From a virus (Duplodnaviria; Heunggongvirae; Uroviricota; Caudoviricetes): 31,998 bases of DNA. Made by a program: the position numbers and the translations under genes. The stretch covers positions 1 to 31,998 of the IMG/VR virus record IMGVR_UViG_2724679538_000010; one strand, 5' to 3'. Shown here in pieces: positions 4,454 through 28,542 of the stretch. Below the pieces are notes generated by a model. The model saw nothing but the letters and a program-made list of their open reading frames with translations, did no database searches and was not told the DNA's origin. Numbering within the stretch: position 1 is the stretch's first letter; every line of letters begins with the position of its first letter.

Positions 4454-4873
4454 TCGTGTTTCCGCTTCGCCGGAGCGCCTTTTCGCGCCATGTGATGAGT
4501 TCGGTCAGGCTCATGAGATACAGTTCTGATGGCGGCCAGTGAAATATCACTGCCACATCCGCCATCAGGTCATCGACCGACAGATTTTTCGGAAACGTCA
4601 CTGCACCGAGTTCGGCGACAAAAAACCGACCACCTTACCGGCCAGCGCCACAAGGTCAGGCAGTTCCAGCGCGGCGACTTCCTGCTCGGTCAGCATCGGT
4701 GCAGTCATGCGCGGCAGCACTTTAATCAGTGCATCGACTTCGGAGTTTGCGACCGCAGCCAGACTGACACCGCGCAGCGTCCCGGCACTGGGTTTCATCA
4801 GCGTGACCTGTTCGATAACCTGCTCACCACGCTTGACCGGATTGTCCAGGGTAATCACATTTTCTTTGTTCAT
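4446..4873 (-). CDS. E': Tail assembly chaperone E+E' made by -1 programmed ribosomal frameshift
   Basis: Manual translation of the -1 frame after the T TTT TTG site gives an open extension (VAELGAVTFPKNLSVDDLMADVAVIFHWPPSELYLMSLTELITWREKALRRSGNTNE) ending at a TAA at 4446-4448, overlapping the T start codon. Confidence 0.7.
4598..4873 (-). CDS. E: Tail assembly chaperone E
   Basis: 91-aa ORF ending ...VVGFLSPNSVQ; slippery heptamer T TTT TTG at its 3' end (plus-strand 4619-4625). Confidence 0.85.
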   Translation of the reverse strand: MNKENVITLDNPVKRGEQVIEQVTLMKPSAGTLRGVSLAAVANSEVDALIKVLPRMTAPMLTEQEVAALELPDLVALAGKVVGFLSPNSVQ

Positions 4874-4929
4874 GGTTTTCTCACTTATGAATCGGGGTTA
4901 ACCGGTCAGCCAGGCTGACCGGATGAAAA

Positions 4930-5448
4930 TCACAGGCCGATATTGCGGCGGTGTAGCTCCAGCCGGTCGACGCCGTTCACCTTCTCAATCATGTTGATGG
5001 TGTCAATTTCGACCAGCTCCTTACCGTCCATCGTCAGCCGGAAATAGGTACAGACCACGGAGATTTTCGACTCGGTGTCTTCTCCCTGTTTACCCTCGCC
5101 GGTGTCGATTTCTTTCTGACGACCACGCATGACCACTTCGACGGCCACCGTTTCGCCGGTATCGTCACGCTGGTAAGAGCCAGCAAAACGAATCGGCACG
5201 GCATCCACACCGGTTGCGGCGTAAAGCTCCCAGATAACCGAATCCGGGAAGCCCCCGAGCGACCACTCCATTGACAGCGCATCGTCATCAAGGCCGAGGT
5301 CTACCGGTGCGCTGCCGTTCATCCCCGCACCGCGATAGTTTTCGAGCTTACGGGTCAGTTTTGGCAGCGTGACGGACTTTGCAACGCCCTGATAGCTGTA
5401 GCCGTTCAGAAAGACGTTCATTAACTTGAGTTTGCGCGGCATTGCCAT
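4930..5448 (-). CDS. FII: Tail tube protein FII
   Basis: 172-aa ORF; length and position match P2 FII. Confidence 0.85.
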   Translation of the reverse strand: MAMPRKLKLMNVFLNGYSYQGVAKSVTLPKLTRKLENYRGAGMNGSAPVDLGLDDDALSMEWSLGGFPDSVIWELYAATGVDAVPIRFAGSYQRDDTGETVAVEVVMRGRQKEIDTGEGKQGEDTESKISVVCTYFRLTMDGKELVEIDTINMIEKVNGVDRLELHRRNIGL

Positions 5449-5460
5449 CGGTCAGGCTCC

Positions 5461-6651
5461 TTAATTGCTGTTAACCGAGGTGACCAGATTTGCCAGGTAT
5501 TTATCGGTAATACGCTGGCGCAGGGTCAGGTTTTCAAGAGGAGGCACCGGGGTATAGTCGTAGTCGATATACAGTTTTCCGGCCTTAAGGGTTTCCGCAT
5601 CGTTGGATTCTTCGCTGAACCAGCAGGTCGCATCCACGATATAGCCGTTTGTTTTCAGCTCACGGAATTTGGCATTGATGCCGTCAACGATGTCGCGAAT
5701 CAGCGTTGCGGTGATGGGCTTGTCCACCGCCCACATGTGCGCCTCAGCCATCGTGTCGGCCAGCACCTGCGCGGTGCGGGTGTAGTTTTCAAAGAGGAAC
5801 AGCGGGTCATCAGAGCAGGTACGGTTACCCCAGAATCGGAAACCGTCGCGTCGAATCAGCGTTGTGACGCCAGACTCGTTAAGCAGGTCAGCATCGGTAC
5901 CGGACTCCTGCAAATCCCAGAATACGGACGCGCTGATGCCGGTAACACCGTTTACCCCGACGTTGGACAGCGTTTTATGCCAGCCCTGCTCCTGGTCGAT
6001 TCTGGCACGCAGACCCAGCGCACGGGCGGTGGCATACGCGGTGGCGATGGTACTGGTGACCGTATCCCATGCGAGGAAATCCGGCCAGATGACCATCAGC
6101 TCACGCTGACTGAAATTCTGGCGGTAGGCTTTCACCTCGGAAATGGTTTTACAGCCCCATGCGCTGATATACCCGAAAGCGCGCAGCTTCTGGCAGACTG
6201 ATGCCAGTGCAACAGCCACCTCTTTGGTGTCCAGTCCCGGCACACCGAGAATACGCGGTTTAACACCGGTTACCGACTCTGCCGCCAGCAGGGCTTTCAG
6301 TCCGGTATACTGACCGTTTTCGTCAGTGGTGCCGATGATATTGGAAACGGTCTGCGCGAGTTTCGTTTCTTCGTCGTCGCCGGTGCCGTCTTCCACACGC
6401 ACGACAACGGTGACCGGTTTTGACTGGTCAGCGATGGCCTGCAGCGACGCCGCCAGCGTGCCTTTTTTACCGGCCTTTGCAATTGCGCTCTGCACATTGG
6501 TAATCAGCACCGGTTTATTGAGGGGGAAGGTTTCCGCATCTGCATCGCTGGCCGTACAGACCATGCCGACAATGGCAGTGGATACGGTGGAAATGACGCG
6601 GGTGCCGTCGTTAATCTCCAGCACCTGCACGCCGTGATGATAGTCACTCAT
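5461..6651 (-). CDS. FI: Contractile tail sheath protein FI
   Basis: 396-aa ORF; length and position match P2 FI sheath protein. Confidence 0.9.
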   Translation of the reverse strand: MSDYHHGVQVLEINDGTRVISTVSTAIVGMVCTASDADAETFPLNKPVLITNVQSAIAKAGKKGTLAASLQAIADQSKPVTVVVRVEDGTGDDEETKLAQTVSNIIGTTDENGQYTGLKALLAAESVTGVKPRILGVPGLDTKEVAVALASVCQKLRAFGYISAWGCKTISEVKAYRQNFSQRELMVIWPDFLAWDTVTSTIATAYATARALGLRARIDQEQGWHKTLSNVGVNGVTGISASVFWDLQESGTDADLLNESGVTTLIRRDGFRFWGNRTCSDDPLFLFENYTRTAQVLADTMAEAHMWAVDKPITATLIRDIVDGINAKFRELKTNGYIVDATCWFSEESNDAETLKAGKLYIDYDYTPVPPLENLTLRQRITDKYLANLVTSVNSN

Positions 6652-6754
6652 CCGTTTAACTCCGTGGTTAATGGGTGCAACTATTTTCTGTTGGGTAGTG
6701 CATGAGACGCTATTTGACCTGGCTGGTCAGTGGATGAAACAACAGATAAAGAAA

Positions 6755-6775
6755 AGGCGGGCAATCCGCCCGCCT
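6755..6775 (-). terminator. Intrinsic-terminator-like hairpin oriented for the minus strand (8-bp GC stem aggcgggc/gcccgcct, 5-nt loop, followed on the minus strand by TTTTCTTT)
   Basis: Inverted repeat read directly from the sequence; T-rich tract only on the minus-strand side. Confidence 0.45.
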
Positions 6776-7139
6776 GCCTTGATTTATACTCTCTCAGTTT
6801 CCAACTGACAAATTACGTAACCAAAATTCTGTCAAATCTGACCGCCTGTTTGAGCAAGAAGCGGATGTTTGCCCCTTTTCTCGTCGTTGATGAGGTTTTA
6901 ACGAACCAATATATCGGCCAAATGGCAGCTAATCAGGATGCAGAACGAGTGGGTATTGAATGCCTTCAGGTTAGGCCTGACAAAATCCCCAGGGGAAAAT
7001 ATCAACCTTTGGACTTTCTGATTACTTAATGAAAGATGGCTTTAGGCATCTTTTTTATGATAATTTCTGGCAAACTACTTTTTTTGTTTATATAAAAACT
7101 ATAATATTGGGTTTAACTCACCCAAAGGGAATATTTAAT

Positions 7140-8063
7140 ATGGCAATAAATCAAAAAGACATCAAATTGTTGTGGGGCCGTTCCGGAAATCGATGTGCAA
7201 TTTGTAGGAGAGAGTTGACACAGGATAAGAACTCCGTTAATTCCGCATTTACACTGGGGGAACAGGCACATATTATTGGAGAGAAGGAAGATGCGGCTCG
7301 AGGAAAATCGAATTTAACTCTGGATGAAAGAAATAGTTATCACAATCTTATTCTCCTTTGCCCAAACCATCATACGGAAATTGATAGAAATGTAGAAGAT
7401 TGGCCAGCCGAAAAACTCTATAACGTTAAGTCAGCACATGAGTTATGGGTTTCTGAAACTCTTAGTAGAGTTGAAGATAAATTTTTTCTAGCCAAGCAAG
7501 TTTCAGTAACTTCAATAATTGACTCCGCAGTAAAATATTGTCGTTTAGAAAATTGGCAGAATTGGACTAGCTTTGCATTATCATCAGATCCTAAGTGGCC
7601 TAAAAATTTACCCGATGATATATTTGAATTTCGGCAAAAAGTCATTTCCGCTATATGGCCTAATGAGTTTGATGAACTGCGAAGAGCCACTGAAACATTT
7701 TCCATAACCCTTAACATAGCCGCCCAAACTTTCATGGAACATTCTAAACTTTATGAAGACACTTATTATCCAGATAAATTTTATAAAACTGGTGGCTGGA
7801 ATGTTAATTATGAAGAAGACGTTGAAAAATATAAGCAATGGATTCAAGAATGTCATAATTGGTTAGTGGAAGCCACAAAATCAGCTAATTGGTTTGCTGA
7901 TGTTGTTCGTAGAGATATTAATCCCATGTTCTTTGCAGAGAAAGGGCGATTCTTAACCATGGAAGGTGATATTCTAGGTTTTAAGGCTAAATTACATGTT
8001 TATACCAAAGAACAAAGAGATTCACTGCCTGACTCACTTGATTTGACAATGAACCCTCATTAA
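7140..8063 (+). CDS. HNH-nuclease-domain protein with an uncharacterised C-terminal domain; cargo gene at the P2 Z/fun position
   Basis: N-terminus has C-x2-C (CAICRR), AHIIGE and NLILLCPNHH motifs consistent with an HNH zinc-finger nuclease fold; AT-rich codon usage unlike the flanking backbone; start chosen at the Met preceded by AAGGGA, an upstream in-frame ATG at 7029 is the alternative. Confidence 0.6.
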   Translation: MAINQKDIKLLWGRSGNRCAICRRELTQDKNSVNSAFTLGEQAHIIGEKEDAARGKSNLTLDERNSYHNLILLCPNHHTEIDRNVEDWPAEKLYNVKSAHELWVSETLSRVEDKFFLAKQVSVTSIIDSAVKYCRLENWQNWTSFALSSDPKWPKNLPDDIFEFRQKVISAIWPNEFDELRRATETFSITLNIAAQTFMEHSKLYEDTYYPDKFYKTGGWNVNYEEDVEKYKQWIQECHNWLVEATKSANWFADVVRRDINPMFFAEKGRFLTMEGDILGFKAKLHVYTKEQRDSLPDSLDLTMNPH

Positions 8064-8197
8064 GAACTAAGTGTAATGATTACTATTATATCATACAAAT
8101 TGCTCCAACAAGAATGGTGGCATTGAAGAGTTCAATGCGAGACTACTATAATGGCATAATCATGCTTTTAACATAAATTATTCATAATGTTATAAAC

Positions 8198-8221
8198 GTC
8201 CGCTCTTGGCACAGAGCGGAC
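8198..8221. terminator. Hairpin between convergent genes (9-bp stem gtccgctct/agagcggac, 6-nt loop), likely bidirectional terminator
   Basis: Perfect inverted repeat lying between the 3' ends of the HNH gene (+) and G (-). Confidence 0.5.
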
Positions 8222-8270
8222 TGTCAGATTAGGCTTTACTCTGTGCTATAGGTATGTAAGCTCATACAAC

Positions 8271-8798
8271 TTATTGCGGCATTTCCGGCCATTCAGGATT
8301 TGCAGGATCCACACGGCTGACCAGAACGCTGTAGCGTTCCCATGACTCCAGTCGTGCACGTTCCTCATCCGTCGCCATATTCAGCCTGACAGCGCGTTCC
8401 AGTGGCTGAATAACGCTTTCCGCTTCGGAAAGTAACGCGGCCTTTTGTGATTCTGCCTGTTGTTGCTGTTCATCTGCCGTATAAATCCGTTTAACCACAG
8501 CACCATCCTTAAACATCCATTTACCTGAGTCGTCAGCACGTCGATTGGAGGTAATATCAGGAACCTCAACAACGCTAAAACCTTCAGGATTAAGCGTTGA
8601 AGCATCTCTGGTGATGGCGACAATAATATTATTTTCATCGTAAACAATCTTTATTGTGTCTGGCTGAAAGTTCTTCACTTCCTCATACCAGTTTTTTCCG
8701 TCTTCGGACCATAACCAGATAACATCAAAATTCTTTGTTAGCTGATATTGTTCTTTTGTTTTTGGATTACCTGACTTAATGTTCTTTAAATGCTGCAT
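8271..8798 (-). CDS. G: Tail fibre assembly protein G
   Basis: 175-aa ORF immediately downstream of the tail fibre gene; length matches P2 G; AT-rich 5' half typical of tail fibre assembly genes. Confidence 0.8.
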
Positions 8799-8801
8799 AA
8801 C

Positions 8802-10811
8802 TTACACCTGCGCAACGTTATACCATGTGCCATTGATGTACTTTTGTATCGGCCTGAAGATGGCTTCATCATCGCCATCTACTTCACCAATGATTCTTAA
8901 TCCGGTAATCGTGTGTCCGGCTTTTTCATAACGACCACCTCGCGCCATCAATTGAACAACTCGCGTACCCAGGCGAACATCTTTCACATAGCGGGAATCA
9001 AAATTCCCCCAATTGCTGGGTTGCATCTGACCATTAACAGCAAATATTACCGAGTTATCTGTATTTCGCTGGCTATAGAAATGCCATCCGGACTCATCGC
9101 CTAACTCTGCAACCACTGGACGGTTGGAAGCACCCCATAAATTAAAGGTAATATTCTTCGTGGATGTGTTAGAGCTGGATAGCGAGAACTTTTTACTATC
9201 CCCTGCCTGAATATTTTTAAAAGCAATAGCCACTCCATTCTGAAAACGGAATACACGCTGACTGTTAGCATAAACATCAAGAATACCGTCTCCATTCTGT
9301 TTAAATCCGGTATCATTATCACCAAGGACAATAGAGCTACCACCTAGTGCATTCGTCGTACCAACTCCAAGACAGCCATTAATGACGGCATTAACAAGAA
9401 TATTTAGTGCATCCCATTTCAGCTTCATCAGGTCTTTTGTTGTGGTACTCTGGCGGCTTCTCCATTTGAAATATTCATTGCCGTTATCCCCCGTTTCAAA
9501 CCACATGTATGAATCAGCGTCACCATCGGCATCATTTTTAAATCCAATCTTCGCCCAGTCAGTATTTCGAATCCAGGCAAGGATTGAGTCGTTTTCAAAA
9601 GTAATCCCGCCGGACAAGATATCGCCATTCTTTTGCACCGCGTTCCTGGCCCTGTTTACCGTTTCCTGCAAACCGAGATATTCGATAACGGCGGCAACGG
9701 TCGATTTAGCCAGAATATCCCGCCCGACTTTTGTCAGGGTCGCCAGGCTGGCAACATCATTCCCCGTAAAATACGGAAACCTGTCTGCCGCAGTAGCAAG
9801 CCCCGCCAGCGCCGTCAAAGTGGCATCTTTCGGTTGCTTACTCGCAAGCGCATTAGTCATGGTGGTAGCAAAATTCGGGTCATTGCCCAGCGCCGCCGCC
9901 AGCTCGTTCAGCGTATTCAGTGCGTCAGGCGACGAGTCTACAAGGGCGGCAATCGCGGCCATAACGAAAGCCGTGTTTGCGATCTGAGTATTATTCGTTC
10001 CCTGTCGCGCAGTTGGCGTCGTTGGCGTTCCGGTCAGTGCAGGGCTGTTTAATGGCGCTTTCTTGTTCGTTTCATCCATTACCGTCTTAACGGCTTTTGG
10101 TGTTGCGGCGAGCGTTTCAGACGTGCTGTTAGTCGCACTACTGAGCTGAACAAGGCCTTTTCGCGCGGTGGTGGCGTCCTGTGCAGTATATTTCCCGTTA
10201 GCAAGGTCATAGGCGGTCTTTACCGCTTTCGGCGTTGCAGCCAGTGTTTCAGACGTGCTGTTGGTCGCACTGCTTAACTGAGTAAAACCTTTTGCGATCA
10301 GCGAGGCGTCAGGGTGACGTCGTGACTGTTCATGTTCTGCAATTTTGTCATCAACGTAATCCTGCGTCGCCATCACCGTTGTGGTGTCAATGGTCAGCTC
10401 CACTGAGGCCACACTGCTGACGATGATGACCATGCGGCAGGTCTGCGAACGCCCTGAGCCTTCGGCAAGAGCTGGCTTATAACTTTCGGCCATGTTCGCC
10501 ACGGCAATTAACGTTCCCGCATCATCGTACAGGCCAAGCTCACGCATCCAGAAACCGCCCACCTCCGGCGGAATAACCAGCTCTGCGATAATATAATTAC
10601 TGTTTCGTTTGTCCTGACTGATTTTGTTCAGCGCATGTCGCCAGACTTCGTGGATAAGCCCGGTCTGTCCGGCATCCGGGACAGGCAATTTACCACCGCC
10701 ATCCCCGACGGCCATCGTGGTAATGTTGACCTTCCGCCCTCCCGGTGCGGTTGCCGCTGCAAGCTTTGCTGCACCGGCAGTGGTGATAACGGTTTTGAAT
10801 TTTGTGCTCAT
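8802..10811 (-). CDS. H: Tail fibre protein H
   Basis: 669-aa ORF, conserved N-terminus MSTKFKTVITTAGAAKLAAATAPGGRKVNITTMAVGDGGG typical of P2-family tail fibres; internal tandem repeat. Confidence 0.9.
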   Translation of the reverse strand: MSTKFKTVITTAGAAKLAAATAPGGRKVNITTMAVGDGGGKLPVPDAGQTGLIHEVWRHALNKISQDKRNSNYIIAELVIPPEVGGFWMRELGLYDDAGTLIAVANMAESYKPALAEGSGRSQTCRMVIIVSSVASVELTIDTTTVMATQDYVDDKIAEHEQSRRHPDASLIAKGFTQLSSATNSTSETLAATPKAVKTAYDLANGKYTAQDATTARKGLVQLSSATNSTSETLAATPKAVKTVMDETNKKAPLNSPALTGTPTTPTARQGTNNTQIANTAFVMAAIAALVDSSPDALNTLNELAAALGNDPNFATTMTNALASKQPKDATLTALAGLATAADRFPYFTGNDVASLATLTKVGRDILAKSTVAAVIEYLGLQETVNRARNAVQKNGDILSGGITFENDSILAWIRNTDWAKIGFKNDADGDADSYMWFETGDNGNEYFKWRSRQSTTTKDLMKLKWDALNILVNAVINGCLGVGTTNALGGSSIVLGDNDTGFKQNGDGILDVYANSQRVFRFQNGVAIAFKNIQAGDSKKFSLSSSNTSTKNITFNLWGASNRPVVAELGDESGWHFYSQRNTDNSVIFAVNGQMQPSNWGNFDSRYVKDVRLGTRVVQLMARGGRYEKAGHTITGLRIIGEVDGDDEAIFRPIQKYINGTWYNVAQV
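10082..10292. repeat. Imperfect tandem duplication of about 130 bp inside H, encoding the repeated peptide QLSSATNSTSETLAATPKAVKT
   Basis: Two near-identical blocks (gtttcagacgtgctgtt(a/g)gtcgcact...) visible in the sequence and in the H translation. Confidence 0.7.
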
Positions 10812-19504: not shown

Positions 19505-19677
19505 TGTCAGGAGTCCTGAATAGTGATTAGAGGAGTCACATGTCGGCATCAGTTTCCTGACGATGCGCATCCTCCGCCATCAGTCCCGGATGGCTTATCA
19601 CTGACACAACAGCACCTTAGCGAATCGCGGGGCGCGACTCAGTAGCCTTGCCGTGTATTCATCACGGCGAGGTATTC

Positions 19678-21450
19678 ATGACCATCACCACAGACACCAC
19701 TCTTTTACACGACCCGCGTCGTCAGGCGGCGCTGCTGTACTGGCAGGGATTTTCCGTGCCGCAGATTGCCGCCATGTTGCAGATGAAACGCCCGACGGTG
19801 CAGAGCTGGAAACAGCGCGACGGCTGGGACAGCGTTGCCCCCATCAGCCGTGTCGAAATGAGTCTGGAAGCGCGGCTGACCCAGCTCATCATCAAACCGC
19901 AGAAAACCGGCGGTGACTTCAAGGAAATTGACCTGCTCGGACGCCAGATTGAACGACTGGCACGGGTCAACCGTTACAGTCAGACCGGCAACGAGGCAGA
20001 CCTTAATCCGAACGTCGCTAACCGCAACAAAGGCGGGCGTCGCAAACCGAAAAAGAATTTTTTCAGTGACGAGGCCATCGAAAAGCTGGAGCAGATTTTC
20101 TTTGAGCAGTCTTTCGAATATCAGTTGCACTGGTATCGCGCCGGGCTTGAGCACCGCATCCGCGATATCCTGAAATCCCGCCAGATTGGCGCGACGTTTT
20201 ATTTTTCCCGCGAGGCGCTGCTGCGCGCCCTGAAAACCGGTCATAACCAGATTTTTCTGTCGGCCAGTAAAACGCAGGCGTATGTGTTCCGCGAATACAT
20301 CATCGCCTTTGCCCGGCTGGTTGACGTTGACCTGACCGGTGACCCGATTGTCCTGGGCAATAACGGCGCAAAACTAATTTTTCTCGGCACCAACTCCAAC
20401 ACCGCACAGAGCCATAACGGCGACCTGTACGTCGACGAGATTTTCTGGATCCCGAATTTTCAGGTACTGCGTAAGGTGGCATCAGGTATGGCCTCACAGA
20501 GTCACCTGCGTTCGACCTATTTCTCCACCCCGTCCACGCTGGCGCACGACGCCTACCCGTTCTGGTCGGGTGAACTGTTCAACCGGGGACGCGCCAGCGC
20601 CGCCGAACGCGTGGAAATCGACGTCAGTCATAACGCCCTTGCCGGTGGGCTTCTCTGTGCGGACGGCCAGTGGCGGCAGATTGTCACCATTGAGGACGCC
20701 CTGAAAGGTGGCTGCACGCTGTTCGACATTGAGCAGCTCAAACGTGAAAACAGCGCCGACGATTTTAAAAACCTGTTCATGTGTGAATTTGTTGACGACA
20801 AGGCGTCGGTGTTCCCGTTCGAGGAGCTGCAACGCTGCATGGTCGACACGCTGGAAGAATGGGAAGACTATGCGCCGTTTGCCGCGAATCCGTTCGGCTC
20901 CCGCCCGGTATGGATTGGTTACGACCCGTCACACCGTGGCGACAGCGCCGGATGCGTGGTGCTGGCACCGCCGGTGGTGGCCGGTGGCAAATTCAGAATA
21001 CTTGAGCGTCACCAGTGGAAAGGCATGGACTTTGCCACTCAGGCGGAATCCATCCGCAAACTCACCGAAAAATACAACGTCGAATACATCGGTATTGATG
21101 CCACCGGCCTCGGTGTCGGCGTGTTCCAGCTCGTGCGCTCGTTCTATCCCGCCGCGCGCGATATCCGCTACACGCCGGAAATGAAAACCGCAATGGTGCT
21201 CAAGGCAAAAGACGTTATCCGCCGTGGCTGTCTGGAATATGACGTCAGCGCCACCGACATCACCAGCTCGTTTATGGCTATCCGCAAGACCATGACCAGC
21301 AGCGGACGCAGCGCCACCTATGAGGCCAGCCGCAGCGAGGAAGCCAGCCACGCCGACCTCGCCTGGGCAACCATGCACGCCCTGTTAAATGAGCCACTCA
21401 CCGCCGGTATCAGCACTCCGCTGACATCCACCATTCTGGAGTTTTACTGA
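19678..21450 (+). CDS. P: Terminase large (ATPase) subunit P
   Basis: 590 aa from MTITTDTTLLHDPRRQAALLYWQGFSVPQIA...; divergent from O; SD GAGGT upstream. Confidence 0.9.
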   Translation: MTITTDTTLLHDPRRQAALLYWQGFSVPQIAAMLQMKRPTVQSWKQRDGWDSVAPISRVEMSLEARLTQLIIKPQKTGGDFKEIDLLGRQIERLARVNRYSQTGNEADLNPNVANRNKGGRRKPKKNFFSDEAIEKLEQIFFEQSFEYQLHWYRAGLEHRIRDILKSRQIGATFYFSREALLRALKTGHNQIFLSASKTQAYVFREYIIAFARLVDVDLTGDPIVLGNNGAKLIFLGTNSNTAQSHNGDLYVDEIFWIPNFQVLRKVASGMASQSHLRSTYFSTPSTLAHDAYPFWSGELFNRGRASAAERVEIDVSHNALAGGLLCADGQWRQIVTIEDALKGGCTLFDIEQLKRENSADDFKNLFMCEFVDDKASVFPFEELQRCMVDTLEEWEDYAPFAANPFGSRPVWIGYDPSHRGDSAGCVVLAPPVVAGGKFRILERHQWKGMDFATQAESIRKLTEKYNVEYIGIDATGLGVGVFQLVRSFYPAARDIRYTPEMKTAMVLKAKDVIRRGCLEYDVSATDITSSFMAIRKTMTSSGRSATYEASRSEEASHADLAWATMHALLNEPLTAGISTPLTSTILEFY

Positions 21451-22484
21451 TGAGCAAGAAAAAAGGGAAAACACCGCAACCTGAGGCAAAAAAAATGACC
21501 GCCAGCGCCCCGAAAATGGAGGCTTTCACCTTTGGTGAGCCGGTGCCGGTACTCGACCGCCGTGACATTCTGGATTACGTCGAGTGCATCAGTAACGGCA
21601 GATGGTATGAGCCGCCGGTCAGCTTTACCGGTCTGGCGAAAAGCCTGCGTGCTGCCGTGCATCACAGCTCACCGATTTACGTTAAACGCAATATTCTGGC
21701 CTCGACATTTATCCCGCATCCGTGGCTTTCGCAACAGGATTTCAGCCGCTTTGTGCTGGATTTTCTGGTGTTCGGTAATGCGTTTCTGGAAAAGCGTTAC
21801 AGCACCACCGGTAAGGTCATCAGACTGGAAACCTCACCGGCAAAATATACCCGCCGTGGCGTGGAGGAGGATGTTTACTGGTGGGTGCCGTCCTTCAACG
21901 AGCCGACAGCCTTCACGCCCGGCTCCGTGTTTCACCTGCTGGAGCCGGATATTAATCAGGAGTTGTACGGCCTGCCGGAATATCTCAGCGCCCTTAATTC
22001 TGCCTGGCTGAATGAGTCGGCCACGCTGTTCCGCCGAAAGTATTACGAAAATGGCGCTCATGCCGGATACATCATGTACGTCACCGATGCCGTGCAGGAT
22101 CGCAACGATATCGAAATGCTTCGCGAAAACATGGTCAAGTCGAAAGGCCGCAACAACTTTAAAAACCTGTTTCTCTATGCCCCACAGGGGAAAGCCGACG
22201 GCATTAAAATTATCCCCCTCAGTGAAGTGGCGACGAAGGACGATTTTTTTAATATCAAAAAAGCCAGCGCCGCTGACCTGCTGGACGCGCACCGCATCCC
22301 CTTTCAGTTGATGGGCGGCAAGCCGGAGAACGTCGGGTCACTGGGAGATATTGAGAAAGTGGCAAAGGTCTTTGTCCGCAATGAGCTTATCCCGCTACAG
22401 GACAGGATCCGCGAGATAAACGGCTGGCTCGGTCAGGAGGTCATCCGCTTTAAAAACTACTCACTGGACACTGACAACGGCTGA
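21450..22484 (+). CDS. Q: Portal protein Q
   Basis: 344-aa ORF; length and position match P2 Q. Confidence 0.9.
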   Translation: MSKKKGKTPQPEAKKMTASAPKMEAFTFGEPVPVLDRRDILDYVECISNGRWYEPPVSFTGLAKSLRAAVHHSSPIYVKRNILASTFIPHPWLSQQDFSRFVLDFLVFGNAFLEKRYSTTGKVIRLETSPAKYTRRGVEEDVYWWVPSFNEPTAFTPGSVFHLLEPDINQELYGLPEYLSALNSAWLNESATLFRRKYYENGAHAGYIMYVTDAVQDRNDIEMLRENMVKSKGRNNFKNLFLYAPQGKADGIKIIPLSEVATKDDFFNIKKASAADLLDAHRIPFQLMGGKPENVGSLGDIEKVAKVFVRNELIPLQDRIREINGWLGQEVIRFKNYSLDTDNG

Positions 22485-22488
22485 ACAT

Positions 22489-22512
22489 CGCCGCCTGCGG
22501 GCGGCTTTTTTA
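22489..22512 (+). terminator. Rho-independent terminator after Q (stem ccgcc/ggcgg, loop tgcg, then T6)
   Basis: GC hairpin followed by TTTTTT directly downstream of the Q stop codon. Confidence 0.6.
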
Positions 22513-22653
22513 CACCCCGTCATCACGCCCTCACACGCTCACCACCGTACAAAACACCCCGCAGACACACCAACGCCTCAACGGGCAGACTAAGCGCCGT
22601 CACGACGCGCTGAGACGCTGAAAAAATACAATCAGCACCACTGTCAGCGCGCA

Positions 22654-22672
22654 GTGCTTTCCCCGCCTCGCC
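22654..22672. other. cos: cos site: 19-nt cohesive-end sequence
   Basis: gtgctttccccgcctcgcc is the exact reverse complement of GGCGAGGCGGGGAAAGCAC, which I recall as the P2 cohesive end; position next to Q is as expected. Confidence 0.7.
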
Positions 22673-22909
22673 CGCCCGCTTCATAGGGCGGTTTTAATGC
22701 AGTTGCTTAGATACTATGGATCCGCACCAGCTCTGACCGCAAGCAGCCGGAACGGGCATCCCCGACGCATGCAAAAACATTCACTTGTTGCATGCACGGC
22801 TTATTTAATGACAAATCAACTTAAATTTACAAAATCCACAGGTATGGATACTTTGCGAACATGATAGGCTTACGAGAATTATCTAGCCTATTTTTGACCG
22901 GAGCAATGT

Positions 22910-23851
22910 ATGCAAGGTAAAGTTGACGAACAGCAATCCAATGATATTGAAGCTGAGTTTGGATACTATCCAGTAGAAGTTAACGTTGAAACTGATGATT
23001 TTTCTTTACTTACTTTACCCGGTCTAGCGGAAAAAACAAATCTTATAAACAATCACAGAAATGTTATTAACGGTTGGATATACCCAGGAAACCAAGAAGT
23101 ATATAACCTCAATGGAGGCATATCCACAATGCCTTTTAGCCAACGAGTATTTGGCTTACCCAAAACACACTCACTAAAATTAAAAAATACATCTTCACTA
23201 GAAACTCTCAATTTTGCTGTGTGGTGTCTGTCTTTTTTCAAAGGGATAAGATTAACAACTACTGATGCCGGTTTTTTAGACGCAACCCCAATAAAACCCA
23301 GCAAATTAACTGACTTTATTCTGGTCAAGTGCTCTGAAAAAGAGGTTATAGAATTAGCACTCAAATACATGTCTAGCGAGAAAAAAACCAAACACGCACC
23401 AATAAATATCGCAGCAATAGTGCATGCACTATTTTTATCCCAAAACCCACAATACCTTAGCTTCGAAAAATTCCAGTATCTTTATATGGCACTGGATAGT
23501 TGCTTTGCTTTAACATGGGCAGAAAAGAACAAGTGTACAGAAAAGACTCTAAATCACTCCAGGCGCTTGAAGTGGATCTGCAAAACTTATGGCATACCAC
23601 GACCATCATGGGTTACAGGCAAAAAAAACATTACAAACATCCGCAATGAAAACTTTCATGAAGCTATGTTTCATGGTCAACCACTTGGCTTTACCACTAT
23701 TAACAATTATCAATATGGAGATGACATATTACAACAAATGCAGGCTTTAATTTGCCGATTGCTCGTTGCGATTCTTGGTGTTAACGCCCCCGATTACATC
23801 ACATCGAACGTGAACTCTCGTGAATATCATTCACTAACATTAAAAATATAA
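22910..23851 (+). CDS. Hypothetical 313-aa protein, AT-rich cargo gene, no recognisable motif
   Basis: Long uninterrupted ORF with GGAG SD upstream; composition and codon usage unlike the prophage backbone. Confidence 0.55.
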   Translation: MQGKVDEQQSNDIEAEFGYYPVEVNVETDDFSLLTLPGLAEKTNLINNHRNVINGWIYPGNQEVYNLNGGISTMPFSQRVFGLPKTHSLKLKNTSSLETLNFAVWCLSFFKGIRLTTTDAGFLDATPIKPSKLTDFILVKCSEKEVIELALKYMSSEKKTKHAPINIAAIVHALFLSQNPQYLSFEKFQYLYMALDSCFALTWAEKNKCTEKTLNHSRRLKWICKTYGIPRPSWVTGKKNITNIRNENFHEAMFHGQPLGFTTINNYQYGDDILQQMQALICRLLVAILGVNAPDYITSNVNSREYHSLTLKI

Positions 23852-23866
23852 AACGACTAAAAATAC

Positions 23867-23892
23867 TCTCCAGTAACAATAAGTACTGGAGA
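23867..23892. terminator. Hairpin between convergent cargo genes (9-bp stem tctccagta/tactggaga, 8-nt loop); T-rich flank on the minus-strand side
   Basis: Perfect inverted repeat between the stop codons of the 313-aa gene and the membrane-protein gene. Confidence 0.5.
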
Positions 23893-23933
23893 TGTATTAT
23901 CACTAAAACCAATAAAAAATCACAACTAATGCT

Positions 23934-24533
23934 TTACTTAGATAGTTTGTCTTTAATTATATTCAGAACACCAATTATTAATTCACTGATTGGCGTGGCC
24001 AACTCAATAGTATTAGATGTCGACTTTGTTCTAAAGTCTTTATCTGTCGGGTGTTGAAATGCTGATTTAAGAAGAGTCAAAAGCAAAGTTAAACCCACAC
24101 CAAGGATGAATGCAACAATAGCTATTAGAGAACTGGCCGATAACCAATCGGTGGATAAACCAGAAATAGATTTTCTAACTTTATTAGTGTCTGAAGATGG
24201 TGTTATCCTCTCATCAGCCATCTTCGGATCCGCAGATAAAGCAGAACATTTTTCTGCTGAAACACAAGTTTGTGCATCTACTTTTTGTGTTATCGCTGTG
24301 GCAATACTGCTTTTCGCTTCCAGCAAGCCATTTCCAACAGCCAAAGCAAAGTTAAGCCCCTGCCATAGAAATGTACAAGCAAAACAAAGCACAACGGCAG
24401 AGAGCACTAATCGCATACTTCTACGCTCTATACCATCCCGTCTATCTCGCCTTATAAGGATATCAGGATCTAAATCGCCCTTAGGAGTGGTTCCTTGCTC
24501 TGGGGACTGTCCAGATAAATCAATATCAGCCAT
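23934..24533 (-). CDS. Predicted two-helix membrane protein (199 aa) with charged N-terminal region; putative effector
   Basis: Two hydrophobic segments (LVLSAVVLCFACTFLWQGLNFALAV and LIAIVAFILGVGLTLLLTLL); co-directional with and 66 bp downstream of the peptidase gene. Confidence 0.6.
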   Translation of the reverse strand: MADIDLSGQSPEQGTTPKGDLDPDILIRRDRRDGIERRSMRLVLSAVVLCFACTFLWQGLNFALAVGNGLLEAKSSIATAITQKVDAQTCVSAEKCSALSADPKMADERITPSSDTNKVRKSISGLSTDWLSASSLIAIVAFILGVGLTLLLTLLKSAFQHPTDKDFRTKSTSNTIELATPISELIIGVLNIIKDKLSK

Positions 24534-24538
24534 AAAAA

Positions 24539-24572
24539 AATCACCCTTACATATACAAACGTAAAGGTGATT
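24539..24572 (-). promoter_or_regulatory. Intergenic hairpin plus U7 tract between peptidase and membrane genes; intrinsic attenuator that also occludes the membrane gene SD
   Basis: Minus-strand RNA AAUCACCUUUA-(12 nt loop)-UAAGGGUGAUU-UUUUUUU-AUG: 11-bp stem with one G.U pair, 3' arm contains the SD-like AAGGGUGA. Confidence 0.5.
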
Positions 24573-24599
24573 TTAAACAGGTTAAAAGTTAAAGGCTAA

Positions 24600-25085
24600 T
24601 TAATAAGCCATTCCTAAGCTCTTTAAGCGCCAATGCATAGCGGCTTCTGATACATTAAAGATGCTTGCTAATCTCAAAGTGCTATCAATACCTTCTCTGG
24701 ATACCAATTGACGTATAGCAGACTCAGGCATTAACAACTCAGCAGCAAACTTGTTTGCTTCAACCTCACGGTAATCACGAGCACCTGTTGAATAATTCCC
24801 GACATTATCCCGATGGTACTCTCCGTCCTGGGTATGCCCCAGCACATGATGACCTAACTCGTGTGCAACAGTAAAACGTTGACGATTAGAATGTTCACTA
24901 GAATCAAAATAAATCCTATGGACACCCTTTTTGATGACAGCCAGACCGCTTAACCCATCGTTGTTATAAGCCGATTCCTCAAGTGCTTCAACACGAGCAC
25001 CCCACGCTTTAGCAAGCTTAAACGGATCGACAGGTAGTCGGCGATCCCAATAGCGGTCAAGCAGTTTTTTAGCTGCATAGCTCAT
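24600..25085 (-). CDS. ImmA/IrrE-family (COG2856-like) zinc metallopeptidase, 161 aa
   Basis: HEXXH motif in FTVAHELGHHVLGH followed by EANKFAAELLMPE, characteristic of ImmA/IrrE peptidases; strong SD AGGAGG 6 nt upstream of the ATG; no HTH domain in the protein. Confidence 0.75.
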   Translation of the reverse strand: MSYAAKKLLDRYWDRRLPVDPFKLAKAWGARVEALEESAYNNDGLSGLAVIKKGVHRIYFDSSEHSNRQRFTVAHELGHHVLGHTQDGEYHRDNVGNYSTGARDYREVEANKFAAELLMPESAIRQLVSREGIDSTLRLASIFNVSEAAMHWRLKSLGMAY

Positions 25086-25807
25086 GGTTGCCTCCTACGT
25101 TAAAAAAGTTAAGTATGCACAGCCATATCACAGTTGTTATTTTATGTCAAGGCTGTTTTTCAGCCATTACTATAACACTAATCCACGTTTTCCCATAACA
25201 TTTTCGACATCATATATGCATTCAGTTCTGCATATAGCGCTTATCTTTGCTGATAACACGAGATGAATACGCGCAATCAGCCCACGATTTATAAAAAACC
25301 TTATAAATCAGAACATTGAGTTAAAAAAAACACTAACTACTTGCGCAGCGAGTTGTTAAACCTCAGCGACACTAAAAGAAAATTTCAGAGTCACCGCAGC
25401 TTCCACAGAAAACGCAACATAATGATTTTATTGGAATTTATGGCGCTATTTTTAATTACTTGTTTAAATCCGCCATATTGAAACTGTGCATTTCTAGCCA
25501 CTCACAACTTTAAAAAATTTACATTGCTTTCAAGACCTTATCATCCGTAGTCTCTGCTTTTTACTTTGAGCTATATCAAAAAAAGCTCAAACATCCTTGA
25601 TGCAAAACCAGTATTACACAACATAAAATGCAACCAGAAACAACGACATACCATATATTGTGTTGTTCAGGTCCTCTGTTCGGTGATATGCCAGATCACT
25701 TTGCGTTTAAACAGAGCATTATTTCAGGGCAAGACTTCGCTCAATAGTCACTCCGCCTTAGAAGCGCATATATCGGCGGAAATTGCCCTCTGCTTACAGG
25801 AGGCGAT

Positions 25808-25921
25808 ATGAAGAAGTGCTATTACTGCATTCTCGTTCTGGCCCTCTTTGGCTATCCATATGGTAGTCCGAGTGGTTTGTCAGTAAACGTCAGTAATATC
25901 CATGTAAGTATTTTTCTTTAG
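25808..25921 (+). CDS. Possible small hydrophobic protein (37 aa, MKKCYYCILVLALFGYPYGSPSGLSVNVSNIHVSIFL)
   Basis: Consensus SD AGGAGG 7 nt upstream of the ATG; ORF ends just before a strong terminator; below the 60-aa cutoff of the ORF track; no homology evidence. Confidence 0.25.
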   Translation: MKKCYYCILVLALFGYPYGSPSGLSVNVSNIHVSIFL

Positions 25922-25933
25922 TATGCTTCAAAC

Positions 25934-25963
25934 AAAAAAACCACCTGCCAGGGTGGTTTTTTT
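25934..25963. terminator. Bidirectional rho-independent terminator (A7 - ccacc..ggtgg hairpin - T7)
   Basis: aaaaaaaccacctgccagggtggttttttt read directly; lies downstream of A on the minus strand and of the small ORF on the plus strand. Confidence 0.65.
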
Positions 25964-26223
25964 GCGCCCGTCATCAATCCGATGAAAGACTAGCAAGACT
26001 TCGCTCGAGATGAATTATGCTTCGACATAAAGTCACTCGCAATGGTTTTATTAACCGAAATAGATGCTCTTTTATGACTCGAATCAAATAGCTGCCTTCA
26101 ATTACATGCTAACGATTCAATACAATTTAGCCTTCTGATTCAACACGCTATTGCTCCTCATCTACCTTAGAGGTGCTTCGCATAATCCATTCAAAGACAT
26201 ATAAAATCACGCTGTATTTTTAC

Positions 26224-28542
26224 TCAAATGGGTAACAAAAATCCCGGCCAATCATCAGCGACCTGATAAGTGAAAGGTTTCCCGTCATAATTTACGGTCG
26301 CGCCACGCGCCAGCGCCTCAAGCTCCCATCGTTGCGGCCTGATACCGTTCTGAGCGAGATCAACGCGGATACGGGTAATTTGCAATCGTTCCGACCGGGT
26401 CAGCCTGGCCGACGGTGCTATTTCATGTGGTTTTAACGGGCTTCCGTTTCTTTGCTGACGATTTGGTGTTTTCAGGCCGTGCTTTAATGCACCCCTGAGC
26501 GTCCTCACGACCTCCGGGTCATTCCATTCGATAACACCGTCATCAACCAGATTAAGCACTGCTGCGGCGTGCTCAGAAGGCGAGGGAGCCGGTAACGAAG
26601 TATTACCGCCGGTGAGCTTTCCACAGTTATTGACAGGACTCCGAGGCGCGGCGATGCCGCTTTTTAAAGTCAAAGGCTCAACGACCGGAACTTTCGGCAC
26701 AATGCGCCAGTCCGTCGTTCTGGTGATATGAATATGACGCGCGCCGAGATGCGGCGCGTAAATGCCGACCACTCTCTCGACTTCTTCCTCGTATTCGTTA
26801 ACGTCATCCGACGGGCTACGAGCGACCCTGACAGTCTGACAATCGCGCGGGACATTTGCCCCGCCCTGCGCGCTGATATACAGCGCAAAATCGCCACTGT
26901 CTGCGGCGGCGCGTGCAGCCTCCACGCGTTCGTCAAATTCATCAGCAATGCTGACGCCGCGAGGCAATTTACGTAGCTCACGGTAAGCTCCCATTGTCGG
27001 CAGGCCAACCGTTTTAAATTGCGGGATGCGCCACGTTGACGCCCATGCGGTAACAGCCGCCGCAGTATCTTTCAGCGGTCTGCCGGTATCGTTATCGAGC
27101 TGACCATCCAGTGCATAGCCGTCGATATTTTTTGAAATGTATTTCGCGATATATCCCGCAGCACCGCCCCGGTTAAGGTGTTTTGCCTGAAAACGGTTTC
27201 GCGCGGCTCCTCTTTCGTCGCCATCCTCTTTGAGCGCATAGCGACGCATGATTTCGATAATCTGGTTACGCTGGCGTGGATTACAAAAAAGCATCATATG
27301 CCAGTGCGGCGTTCCGTCGTGGTGTGGCTCGACGACTCGCAAACCGTAGACCTGTAAATCATTATCCTTGAATGCCGTGCGCATCAGGCTCCAGATACGA
27401 CAGAGATAACGCTGCGCATCCTTTGGATTAAATGCCTCATCATTCCAGCCGTGATTAAGCTGGACGGTTTTATTTTCGCCTTTTCCAACCTGACGTGTCG
27501 GGTGATACTTTGACGGCGCGGTAAGCGTGATAAACATCCCCACATCACCCTCTGATGCGGCGTAACGCTCAATACCGGCAATGGTGTTCATCAGCTCCAT
27601 CCGGCGAATTTCAGGATTAGAAATACTGCCCATCACCTTACTGATAAGGTCGATGCGCTCGCCGGTTTCCCTGTTTTCAAGGTCACACGATTTAAGAAAT
27701 TCCAGATTTGCCTGGCGGCGCGCACGCACATCACGAATGGCATGTTTACTGGCATAAGGTGAACGGTCTTTATTGACCTCCCCGACAGCAATCAGTAACG
27801 CCTCATGCCAGCGCATACGCTGGCCTTTAAGCTGACTAATCCACCACTCATCGTTAAACAGGCGGGCAATGGCAGAATATGCCTGCCTCGTGGTCATCTG
27901 TCCTTTACGGTATTTTTTCCAGTAGAGAGGGGAAATATTGAAAGCACGTGCAGCGCCAGCAACATGACCATACAGGTGAGCCTGCGCCTCATCCGTAAAC
28001 AGCGATTCTTTTTCGCCATGCGCATCCACCCAGGCATCGCAGAGTTCCTCATACATCATGAAAAGCTGCGATGAGATACGGGCGGCAAACTTTTTCAGCT
28101 CCTTGTCATTCATTCCTGGCAGGCGCGCATAGTGGTCACGCTCTGCCAGAAACAGCAACGACGCGTCGGTGTTCATTTCATGGCGCTGATTCACACGCTC
28201 AATACGCGGCCATAAACGACGCTGAAAAGTGGATGTGAGGAAATAAAACCCGTGTACCGGACTTTTATTGCTCCGGATGTAGTCATAGCGTGAAGTAAAC
28301 AGCGAGCGCAAAAAGTAAGGCAGGCGGTTAATCGTGGATAAAACACCTTGCACCTGACGCATCTCGTCACGTGTAAGAGGTCTTTCTCGCCCGACGGCCT
28401 CGCGTGGCGCGTTCCATGCATAAGCACCGGTAAACGTCTCACCGGTGCCTGCGGCAAATGCTGACGGAGGGACAAAACGCCCGGAGGCTTTAACGGCCAT
28501 ATGAGCCAAAAGCCTCTGAACAACGCTTGCTGAGTTGCTCAA
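26224..28542 (-). CDS. A: Replication initiation endonuclease A (rolling-circle initiator)
   Basis: 772-aa ORF; conserved HUH-type region (PHHDGTPHWHMMLF) and paired Tyr region typical of P2 gpA family. Confidence 0.9.
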   Translation of the reverse strand: MSNSASVVQRLLAHMAVKASGRFVPPSAFAAGTGETFTGAYAWNAPREAVGRERPLTRDEMRQVQGVLSTINRLPYFLRSLFTSRYDYIRSNKSPVHGFYFLTSTFQRRLWPRIERVNQRHEMNTDASLLFLAERDHYARLPGMNDKELKKFAARISSQLFMMYEELCDAWVDAHGEKESLFTDEAQAHLYGHVAGAARAFNISPLYWKKYRKGQMTTRQAYSAIARLFNDEWWISQLKGQRMRWHEALLIAVGEVNKDRSPYASKHAIRDVRARRQANLEFLKSCDLENRETGERIDLISKVMGSISNPEIRRMELMNTIAGIERYAASEGDVGMFITLTAPSKYHPTRQVGKGENKTVQLNHGWNDEAFNPKDAQRYLCRIWSLMRTAFKDNDLQVYGLRVVEPHHDGTPHWHMMLFCNPRQRNQIIEIMRRYALKEDGDERGAARNRFQAKHLNRGGAAGYIAKYISKNIDGYALDGQLDNDTGRPLKDTAAAVTAWASTWRIPQFKTVGLPTMGAYRELRKLPRGVSIADEFDERVEAARAAADSGDFALYISAQGGANVPRDCQTVRVARSPSDDVNEYEEEVERVVGIYAPHLGARHIHITRTTDWRIVPKVPVVEPLTLKSGIAAPRSPVNNCGKLTGGNTSLPAPSPSEHAAAVLNLVDDGVIEWNDPEVVRTLRGALKHGLKTPNRQQRNGSPLKPHEIAPSARLTRSERLQITRIRVDLAQNGIRPQRWELEALARGATVNYDGKPFTYQVADDWPGFLLPI

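Follow-up and report, generated by a model that had tools for sequence, protein, structure and literature searches.

The DNA examined here is a 31,998-nt stretch of a P2-like prophage (the window, in which all coordinates are given), and the subject of this study is the AT-rich island at positions 22673–26223, between the cohesive-end site cos and the replication gene A. Our reading, to which we assign a probability of roughly 0.6, is that the island is the cargo of hotspot 1 (cos–A) of a P2-like prophage and is built from three modules: a HEPN-domain protein encoded by open reading frame (ORF) 313, a cassette of an M78 peptidase and a transmembrane (TM) protein, and a block headed by a homologue of the nrdDG promoter with the layout of a type I toxin–antitoxin (TA) locus. 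The hotspot itself is already known. The genuinely new lead is the capture of the nrdDG promoter in front of a small conserved peptide, together with a candidate small RNA (sRNA).

The island consists of three independent modules and is not one unit. The genome sets compared were the complete E. coli genomes (n = 5426), IMG/VR and the species representatives. The island flanks are present in 2156 of the 5426 complete E. coli genomes, and the whole island is found in 46 of them and in one Salmonella phage record, which excludes that all P2-like phages share the same content. ORF313 stands beside the peptidase and TM genes in 46–47 E. coli genomes and the Salmonella phage, with an identity of at least 99%. 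Taken separately, ORF313 occurs in 98 E. coli genomes as two alleles, the peptidase–TM pair in 50, and the module at 25388–26223 (module 3 below) in about 150, where it adjoins differing cargo. Alternative cargo at the hotspot was observed in the comparison loci L001 and L004–L006.

The junctions in related prophages define how far the swapped part extends. The cos flank with its old-type promoter is kept to about 22825 in prophages of the E24377A and P2DC1 types, and it joins directly to about 25388 in E24377A-type prophages or to about 25459 in KO11FL-type ones. The former junction sets the swapped insert proper at about 22826–25387. An earlier model-made interpretation of the window (the sequence-only reading) had taken the whole of 22673–26223 as accessory island; this holds for the swapped cargo and not for the right-hand ~840 bp, which form a semi-conserved module rather than variable cargo. 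In the E24377A- and KO11FL-type prophages (L004, about 4222–4330, and L005), the homology breaks a few bases before the cos 19-mer, the space between cos and A holds just the old-type promoter and the 840-bp module, and their own cargo, an AAA ATPase and a small protein, lies on the Q side of cos. Cargo placement is therefore possible on either side of cos. In many complete E. coli genomes the island lies at record coordinates 2201–6001, near the conventional assembly start, which suggests a preferred prophage integration site near there.

The island is situated between the portal gene Q with cos and the stop codon of gene A at 26224, the location given by the sequence-only reading. Its distinct composition and codon usage, claimed there as well, are borne out by numbers: the GC content is 0.390 versus 0.545 in the remaining window, and the GC content at third codon positions is 0.29–0.36 in the three island ORFs versus 0.54–0.71 in the backbone genes P, Q and A. 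The island is also the lowest-GC 3.55-kb stretch of the window, with the minimum (0.387) for a stretch starting at 22751. In P2 itself, this position is occupied by orf91, tin and old. None of these resident genes is present, as had been stated; no PADLOC or Pfam match of the Old or Tin kind was found among the three island ORFs, and past the cos flank no DNA similarity to P2 was found. The position is the gpQ–gpA site described as a variable hotspot of P2-like prophages (PMC9122126, PMC9519451), in agreement with the counts of flanks and full islands above. The terminators lie within the region and do not bound it, contrary to the sequence-only reading (Table 1).

The promoter retained beside cos aligns with the P2 sequence upstream of the mapped old–tin mRNA starts, and its retention suggests that the first cargo gene would be expressed like old. 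A motif upstream of and overlapping this promoter, ATGCAA-N-CAT-CAC-TTG-ATGCA (22770–22800), is kept from P2 through all compared relatives and may be an operator or a packaging-related site.

Module 3 begins with sequence of host type. The segment 25510–25636 matches the treC–nrdD intergenic region of all 5426 E. coli genomes and also that of Salmonella. As in an nrdDG-type promoter, it retains two FNR boxes spaced 31 bp apart and, downstream of them, the −10 hexamer TAAAAT, which places the start of transcription at about 25637, reading rightwards. The nrdDG homology ends at this start site, so the captured part is the promoter alone. A 16-mer just downstream of the predicted start, ATACCATATATTGTGT (25648–25663), agrees at 14 of 16 positions with acaCwAtATaTwGtgt, which we take to be the NrdR-box consensus, and residual NrdR control is possible. 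The core of the captured segment, 25562–25615 (TACTTTGAGCTATATCAAAAAAAGCTCAAACATCCTTGATGCAAAACCAGTATT), is near-identical to a published 54-mer, TACTTTGAGCTACATCAAAAAAAGCTCAAACATCCTTGATGCAAAGCACTATAT, that binds two FNR dimers at sites centred at −64.5 and −33.5; site 2 is the one that is required and that suffices, according to work summarised in the same paper (PMC10425943). FNR site 2 is intact in all haplotypes. The region 25510–26130 is about 97% identical between prophages whose adjacent peptidase gene is only about 80% identical. A BLAST search of phages for distant copies of module 3 added matches to the nrdD promoter only.

The captured promoter is followed by a leader and a gene of 37 codons. 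The ORF has 14 variable sites among 31 distinct sequences (8 nucleotide variants): codon position 3 accounts for 11 of them, including one in the stop codon, position 1 for three and position 2 for none. The 180 nt upstream, read in the same frame, vary at 11:7:8 sites with no codon-position bias, and the upstream region contains an in-frame stop in three of the four main haplotype groups. The third-position bias within the ORF and its absence upstream identify the 37-residue ORF as a real gene, under purifying selection, and the upstream part as its leader. RefSeq annotates no feature at all in 25086–26223 (1138 bp), and the sequence-only reading had regarded about 1.1 kb here as apparently non-coding; this view has to be given up, given the gene, its nrdDG-homologous promoter and the terminator. 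A longer protein that includes the leader, as in database entries of 88–97 residues, was rejected on the lack of codon-position bias and the in-frame stops. The polymorphic stop codon at 25745–25747 (mostly TAG, AAG or CAG elsewhere) fuses the leader ORF in frame to the 37-codon gene where it is lost, and the resulting database proteins of 88–149 residues look like annotation artefacts of this polymorphism.

The peptide starts with MKK, continues with a hydrophobic stretch of 13–15 residues and ends in a β-strand-like tail. Its exact sequence is present on about 970 contigs, annotated only as hypothetical, and a full-text literature search with it returned no paper. A degenerate pattern for the N-terminus had no match in species-representative genomes; a C-terminal pattern had four, all in unrelated taxa (Vampirovibrionales, Pedobacter, Fonticella and Ignavibacteria), which were read as chance. 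In the consensus fold of the leader, CCCUCU masks the Shine–Dalgarno (SD) sequence, the start region pairs with leader sequence, and one compensatory pair is seen, in the UCCGCC/GGCGGA hairpin.

Downstream of the gene, the 45 bp that contain the terminator (25922–25966) have a single variable site across the 31 sequences. Convergent to the gene, a promoter-like site lies 7 nt upstream of a 14-nt match to the leader and about 75 nt from the perfect terminator. In all haplotypes its −10 is invariant and its −35 keeps five of six bases (TTGCGA to TTGCGG), and the spacer varies. A transcript from this site would be an sRNA whose first nucleotides have 14-nt exact complementarity to the leader at 25729–25742. 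A direct repeat of at least 14 nt arises in 0.5% of dinucleotide shuffles. The predicted sRNA–leader duplex has an energy of −40 kcal/mol, which none of 500 shuffled leaders reached (−25.5 ± 3.2), and the predicted sRNA itself folds with z = −5.0.

Table 1. Coordinates of the island, its modules and the flanking landmarks
Feature	Positions	Strand	Remarks
Terminase gene P	19648–21450		
Portal gene Q	21450–22484		
cos cohesive-end 19-mer GTGCTTTCCCCGCCTCGCC	22655–22673		identical to P2 cosR; left anchor of the hotspot
cos-flank hairpin	22672–22691		
Retained old/tin-type promoter	22780–22809	+	−35 TTCACT, 18-nt spacer, −10 TTTAAT; predicted start ~22816–22823; reads into ORF313; presumed active
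Swapped insert	22826–25387		ORF313 and peptidase/TM cassette with its own upstream region
ORF313, 313 residues	22910–23851	+	N-terminal α/β domain and C-terminal HEPN domain, R245-N246-x3-H250-E251; predicted RNase effector
9-bp hairpin where ORF313 and the TM gene converge	23867–23892		terminator-like on both strands
Two-TM protein, 199 residues (N-in/C-in)	23934–24533	−	putative membrane effector
Attenuator hairpin, 13 bp and U-run	24537–24574	−	adjoins the TM start codon; 3′ arm contains the SD
M78 (ImmA/IrrE-type) zinc metallopeptidase, 161 residues	24600–25085	−	HELGH; protease domain alone
Cassette upstream region	25086–25387	−	strong SD, ~75-nt leader, putative promoter with extended −10 TGtTATAGT (25169–25177)
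Shared A-proximal module (module 3), ~840 bp	25388–26223		semi-conserved among P2-like prophages
nrdDG-promoter homologue, ~130 bp	25510–25636	+	FNR boxes, −10 TAAAAT (25624–25629), predicted start ~25637
FNR site 2 TTGAGCTATATCAA	25566–25579	+	
FNR site 1 TTGATGCAAAACCA	25597–25610	+	
5′ leader, ~170 nt	25637–25807	+	14-nt sRNA-matching site 25729–25742; UCCGCC/GGCGGA hairpin
Anti-SD GCCCUCU	25785–25791	+	opposite the SD AGGAGG 25798–25803
37-residue ORF MKKCYYCILVLALFGYPYGSPSGLSVNVSNIHVSIFL	25808–25921	+	behind AGGAGG; putative small membrane or secreted peptide
Bidirectional intrinsic terminator	25933–25964	both	perfect 13-bp stem with A-run/T-run flanks; ends the small-gene transcript and the early (A) operon
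Predicted sRNA, ~75 nt	25931–26007	−	5′ GAGCGAAGUCUUGC complementary to the leader at 25729–25742; ends at the terminator
Promoter-like site of the predicted sRNA	26014–26042	−	TTGCGA-17-CATAAT
Replication gene A	26224–28542	−	

The layout of module 3 is predicted, by analogy, to be that of a type I TA-like locus, with a peptide of 37 residues (fewer than 60) behind a strong SD, third-position bias and a hydrophobic N-terminal half. As judged from the promoter sequence, FNR would activate the promoter taken from the host nrdDG operon and switch on the module without oxygen, driving the long structured leader and the conserved hydrophobic peptide. The convergent sRNA of about 75 nt, embedded at the 3′ end of the replication operon, may then pair with the leader. 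In some phages module 3 is the sole content between cos and A, at the old/tin-type site, which suggests a minimal device for exclusion or maintenance, conditional on the environment. In its most ambitious form our proposal is a phage-borne, oxygen-gated, type I TA-like switch that expresses a membrane-active peptide only under anaerobic (gut) conditions and is checked by the sRNA, next to an M78 protease with a membrane effector as its partner. We regard this form as tentative and, taken as a whole, doubtful.

An alternative for module 3 is that the 37-codon gene encodes a harmless membrane or secreted peptide, made anaerobically for lysogenic conversion or exclusion, that no sRNA is made, and that the 14-nt repeat is a protein-binding site or a relic of duplication. 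The coding signature is solid, toxicity being only presumed; the peptide looks more like a signal peptide followed by a β-strand than like a classic helical type I toxin, and the sRNA has no covariation on its side. Against it, a conserved promoter-like site lies close to the match and at sRNA length from a perfect terminator, the repeat and the duplex energy exceed those of shuffled sequences, and the SD is masked in the consensus fold. We consider this alternative possible, if on balance unlikely.

The second module is a cassette of two genes. The peptidase matches Pfam PF06114 (E = 3.8e-21), with its HELGH at residues 85–89. Its best PADLOC model is capP (E = 1e-30, profile positions 8–153 of 242), its other PADLOC matches are to generic M78 components (such as RmrA and PD-Lambda-2_B), and among solved structures CapP (7t5t) and IrrE are the nearest. 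The C-terminal sensor part of the capP model is not covered by the 161 residues of the peptidase (the solved CapP chain has 291). No helix-turn-helix (HTH) domain was found in any ORF of at least 29 residues in the spacer or in the cos flank; a hidden HTH gene in the spacer was rejected, and the small ORFs of 25086–25387 contain no HTH or other domain. The cassette upstream region is conserved with the version in P2DC1/TA280, and its ribosome-binding-site block, AACGTAGGAGGCAACCATGA, recurs in the Serratia and Enterobacter cassettes.

The partner gene encodes a protein with hydrophobic segments at residues ~41–66 and ~131–157; positive charge on the N- and C-terminal side of each points to an N-in/C-in topology. 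The AlphaFold2 model is of low confidence (predicted local distance difference test (pLDDT) 62) and consists of helices 23–89, 116–159 and 181–198. The family comprises 51 clusters from Enterobacterales and a few Vibrio. It shares an N-terminal MA-x-(I/V)DLSG motif, a proline-rich linker, a periplasmic CxxxxKC, a near-invariant second TM segment (AFILGVGLTLLLTLLK) and a C-terminal amphipathic helix, and the TM protein has no PADLOC match at E ≤ 1. Because the N-terminal MA-x-IDLSG extension is conserved, the longer ORF with its start codon at 24533 is the real one. Some RefSeq records, the P2DC1 phage record and a published table annotate the gene (23934–24533; L001 326–949) 40–48 codons short (159–160 residues).

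In Serratia, Enterobacter and Vibrio, the TM gene is likewise preceded by an M78 peptidase of 161–164 residues at a distance of 70–74 nt. Outside P2, the cassette is located on a Serratia chromosome, on an Enterobacter contig where it adjoins genes for a Zeta-toxin, a DprA-like protein and an HNH protein, and on a Vibrio element flanked by recombinase genes; there, as in P2DC1/TA280, the pair occurs without ORF313. The island therefore does not hold three unrelated ORFs, as had been supposed: the peptidase and TM genes form a conserved cassette, also outside P2. Between the two genes, the attenuator hairpin folds with z = −5.1. In an alignment of nine sequences, 98% of its cells are paired, two pairs have compensatory changes and the loops vary freely; Vibrio has a hairpin of different sequence at the equivalent place before the TM gene. 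By analogy with lysis genes behind terminators, the hairpin may act as a terminator or attenuator (masking the SD) that keeps a dangerous membrane protein scarce. The minimum-energy fold of 24525–24605 on the minus strand contains an extra 7-bp helix between the peptidase stop region (UUAGCCU) and the TM start region (AUGGCUGA); it encloses the attenuator hairpin, and its conservation in homologues looked weak.

How the pair might work can be outlined as follows. The TM protein would be a toxic membrane effector whose amount the attenuator keeps low. The peptidase may cut a cytoplasmic tail of this effector and so control it, either triggering it or guarding against it in the manner of an antitoxin; the pair would then act as an abortive-infection or TA-like unit. 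Control by the peptidase is proposed because of the strict pairing and the absence of any HTH substrate. If so, this would be the first ImmA/IrrE-type protease with a membrane effector, rather than an HTH repressor, as its dedicated partner.

A homologue of this cassette has been cloned by others. Rousset et al. 2022 (PMC9122126) cloned the homologue from E. coli TA280 as 'Peptidase + TM' (pFR104) with the whole upstream spacer and tested it, with the other additional P2 candidates, against eight phages; three of the eight candidates were reported as protective, and this one was not among them. The sequence-only reading had counted all contents of the island as candidate defence determinants, a claim that is not supported in that form. 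The result also fits an alternative, in which the pair is an addiction or stabilisation (TA) module of mobile elements with no anti-phage role: no defence phenotype is reported for the TA280 homologue, TA operons typically have this gene order (the regulator first, the other gene after it and behind an attenuator), the Enterobacter copy lies among toxin-type genes, and the Vibrio copy lies between recombinase genes. Against it stand the small panel of the published test and the hotspot location; according to a 2026 preprint, most unannotated loci tested in P4 hotspots proved defensive. We hold the addiction module to be rather unlikely. It is also conceivable that the peptidase is a prophage switch which cleaves an HTH repressor (P2-type C or that of a competitor) upon DNA damage, with the TM protein accessory or unrelated. 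The nearest profiles and structures, CapP and IrrE, are in its favour and, to our knowledge, characterised M78 members all cleave an HTH repressor. However, the peptidase travels with the TM gene at fixed spacing in non-P2 Serratia, Enterobacter and Vibrio, the capP match lacks the C-terminal part, and no HTH gene is found in the island, which makes such a switch improbable.

The first module is ORF313. In the P2-EC67 record AM157369 it appears as 'ORF313' with different neighbouring genes, and it belongs to PHROG 5937, a PHROG without assigned function. Homologues form 603 clusters across Gammaproteobacteria, all of about 315 residues. R245, N246, H250 and E251 are invariant among 37 homologues of 44–79% identity, and the sequence R245-N-E-N-F-H250 represents RNxxxH, a common variant of the HEPN Rx4-6H motif. 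The AlphaFold model (pLDDT 83, predicted template modelling score 0.84) has an N-terminal α/β domain and a C-terminal helical domain, and the latter has the four-helix HEPN fold. One homologue is named 'Apea-like HEPN' in UniRef. ORF313 itself has no Pfam or NCBIfam match and no PADLOC match at E ≤ 1, and a Pfam scan of the 37 family members found no HEPN family at E ≤ 0.1. A family profile search of PDB sequences gave weak matches to ribonucleotide reductase R2, which were judged spurious.

The surroundings of ORF313 vary from genome to genome. It has other partner genes in P2-EC67 and is solitary in Aeromonas, Pseudomonas and Acinetobacter. One distant homologue adjoins an OLD-like ATPase in a P. 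aeruginosa island, another, in Acinetobacter, adjoins a gene for DUF4238, a validated P2-hotspot defence system, and the Aeromonas homologue is flanked by housekeeping genes. Most likely, ORF313 is a latent HEPN RNase of the abortive-infection type with the N-terminal domain as trigger sensor. From its sequence, it would be transcribed from the old/tin-type promoter and stay latent until the N-terminal domain senses a phage cue, upon which the RNase would abort the infection.

For all three modules, then, a role in defence is plausible by location and by analogy (a HEPN protein, a membrane effector and a small hydrophobic peptide). Several observations weigh against the three-module reading as a whole. 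A Foldseek search of the ORF313 model against PDB and BFVD gave nothing significant, and PADLOC and Pfam models leave the protein unmatched. For the cassette, the TA280 result and the missing HTH repressor gene, in comparison with the ImmA, IrrE and CapP relatives, both count: the M78 relatives known to us cleave HTH repressors, the island encodes no such repressor, and that the peptidase cleaves the TM protein is therefore purely our inference. In module 3, the KO11FL-type haplotype has a degraded FNR site 1, the hydrophobic stretch of the peptide is short for a membrane helix, and the overall folding energy of the leader is ordinary (z = −0.6). The sRNA seed and its target show no covariation in the 4–5 haplotypes, which are all that module 3 has, and the species-representative genomes lack the module. 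An Rfam scan of 22000–27000 at E ≤ 1 gave sub-threshold matches around the terminator (RNAI, Phe_leader and P9) and no family.

Two further alternatives fare worse than those above. The 1.1 kb might be a decaying, non-functional spacer with the nrdDG similarity as a recombination scar, given that it is AT-rich and unannotated and that the upstream stop-codon polymorphism creates artefactual database proteins. Decay is very improbable for a region more conserved than the neighbouring peptidase gene, with ORF variation concentrated at third codon positions and with FNR site 2, the −10 hexamer, the terminator and the sRNA promoter hexamers retained across haplotypes (the −35 at five of six bases). 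A single system of ORF313, TM protein and peptidase, to which the adjacency of the three genes at near-identity would point, deserves hardly any credence and was rejected on distribution, for ORF313 and the pair are each found without the other in many contexts and are convergently transcribed with a hairpin between them.

If the capture of an oxygen-sensing promoter is true, functions in lysogenic conversion or defence would depend on the anaerobic gut environment and escape aerobic phage-panel assays. Genuine small genes and regulatory RNAs can lie in hotspot stretches that are annotated as empty. ORF313, which sequence records have left an orphan since P2-EC67 was deposited, now has a testable HEPN active site. 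The 'Peptidase + TM' candidate gains an architecture (a true ORF of 199–207 residues, a conserved attenuator and recurrence outside P2), which provides an explanation of why native-promoter clones may express little effector.

A second low-GC insert (core GC 0.35–0.36) is present in the window at 6730–8063, with an AT-rich zone at about 6900–9600. It sits between the tail sheath and tail-fibre assembly genes, that is, at the Z/fun-type second hotspot, and encodes an ORF of 99 residues and a 344-residue protein in which an HNH_2 domain is present. In PADLOC, the latter scores best with PDC-M68A and with HNH effectors of the type found in the cyclic-oligonucleotide-based anti-phage signalling system (CBASS).

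Compared with known systems, the island resembles the P2 old/tin locus (PMC9122126, PMC9519451) in its position between cos/Q and A, in the retained old-type promoter and in its AT-rich, swappable content, which likewise differs between otherwise near-identical prophages. Unlike that locus, it has no homology to old, tin or orf91, it is composite, and its part from 25388 to 26223 is semi-conserved. Among the Rst systems of Rousset, the PD systems of Vassallo and the other systems in PADLOC v2, no profile of a system component is matched, and the peptidase matches generic M78 components only. Stand-alone HEPN RNases of abortive infection (AbiV, the HEPN toxins of HepT/MntA, prophage HepS and Csm6-type effectors) have the same four-helix core and R-N-x3-H as ORF313, and likewise lie in prophage or defence-island neighbourhoods. 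ORF313 differs in its distinct N-terminal α/β domain of about 135 residues, in the lack of a partner gene, and in that no membership of a sequence family was detected (Pfam, PADLOC, NCBIfam).

The peptidase shares the M78 fold and HExxH with CapP/CapH, ImmA/ImmR and IrrE/DdrO, with capP as its best profile and CapP and IrrE as its nearest structures. In contrast to these, it comes without an HTH substrate gene, a C-terminal sensor domain or a CBASS or other regulated operon, and its constant partner is the two-TM protein instead. The published 'Peptidase + TM' of TA280 (pFR104) has a homologous M78 peptidase (the gene is about 80% identical in DNA in the matching P2DC1 prophage), a homologous TM protein and the same upstream spacer, module 3 included. 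The island version is a different allele: the central periplasmic segment of the TM protein is divergent, and ORF313 stands beside the pair. At 159 residues, the TM protein as published is annotated about 48 codons short.

With the type I TA loci zorO–orzO, tisB–istR1 and ralR–ralA (PMC3919570, PMC5397157, PMC4041452), module 3 shares a small hydrophobic peptide, a leader of about 170 nt predicted to mask the SD, and a separately transcribed predicted sRNA whose 5′ end has 14-nt complementarity to the leader. It differs from them in that the predicted sRNA would be convergent and share the terminator, instead of being divergent or overlapping, in that its promoter is of the FNR type and comes from nrdDG, and in that the peptide is no classic single amphipathic helix. 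With the E. coli nrdDG promoter itself it shares about 130 bp, including the near-identical 54-mer core, both FNR boxes and the −10 hexamer; the copy in module 3 differs in having lost the first NrdR box and in being located in a phage, before an unrelated leader and the 37-codon gene.

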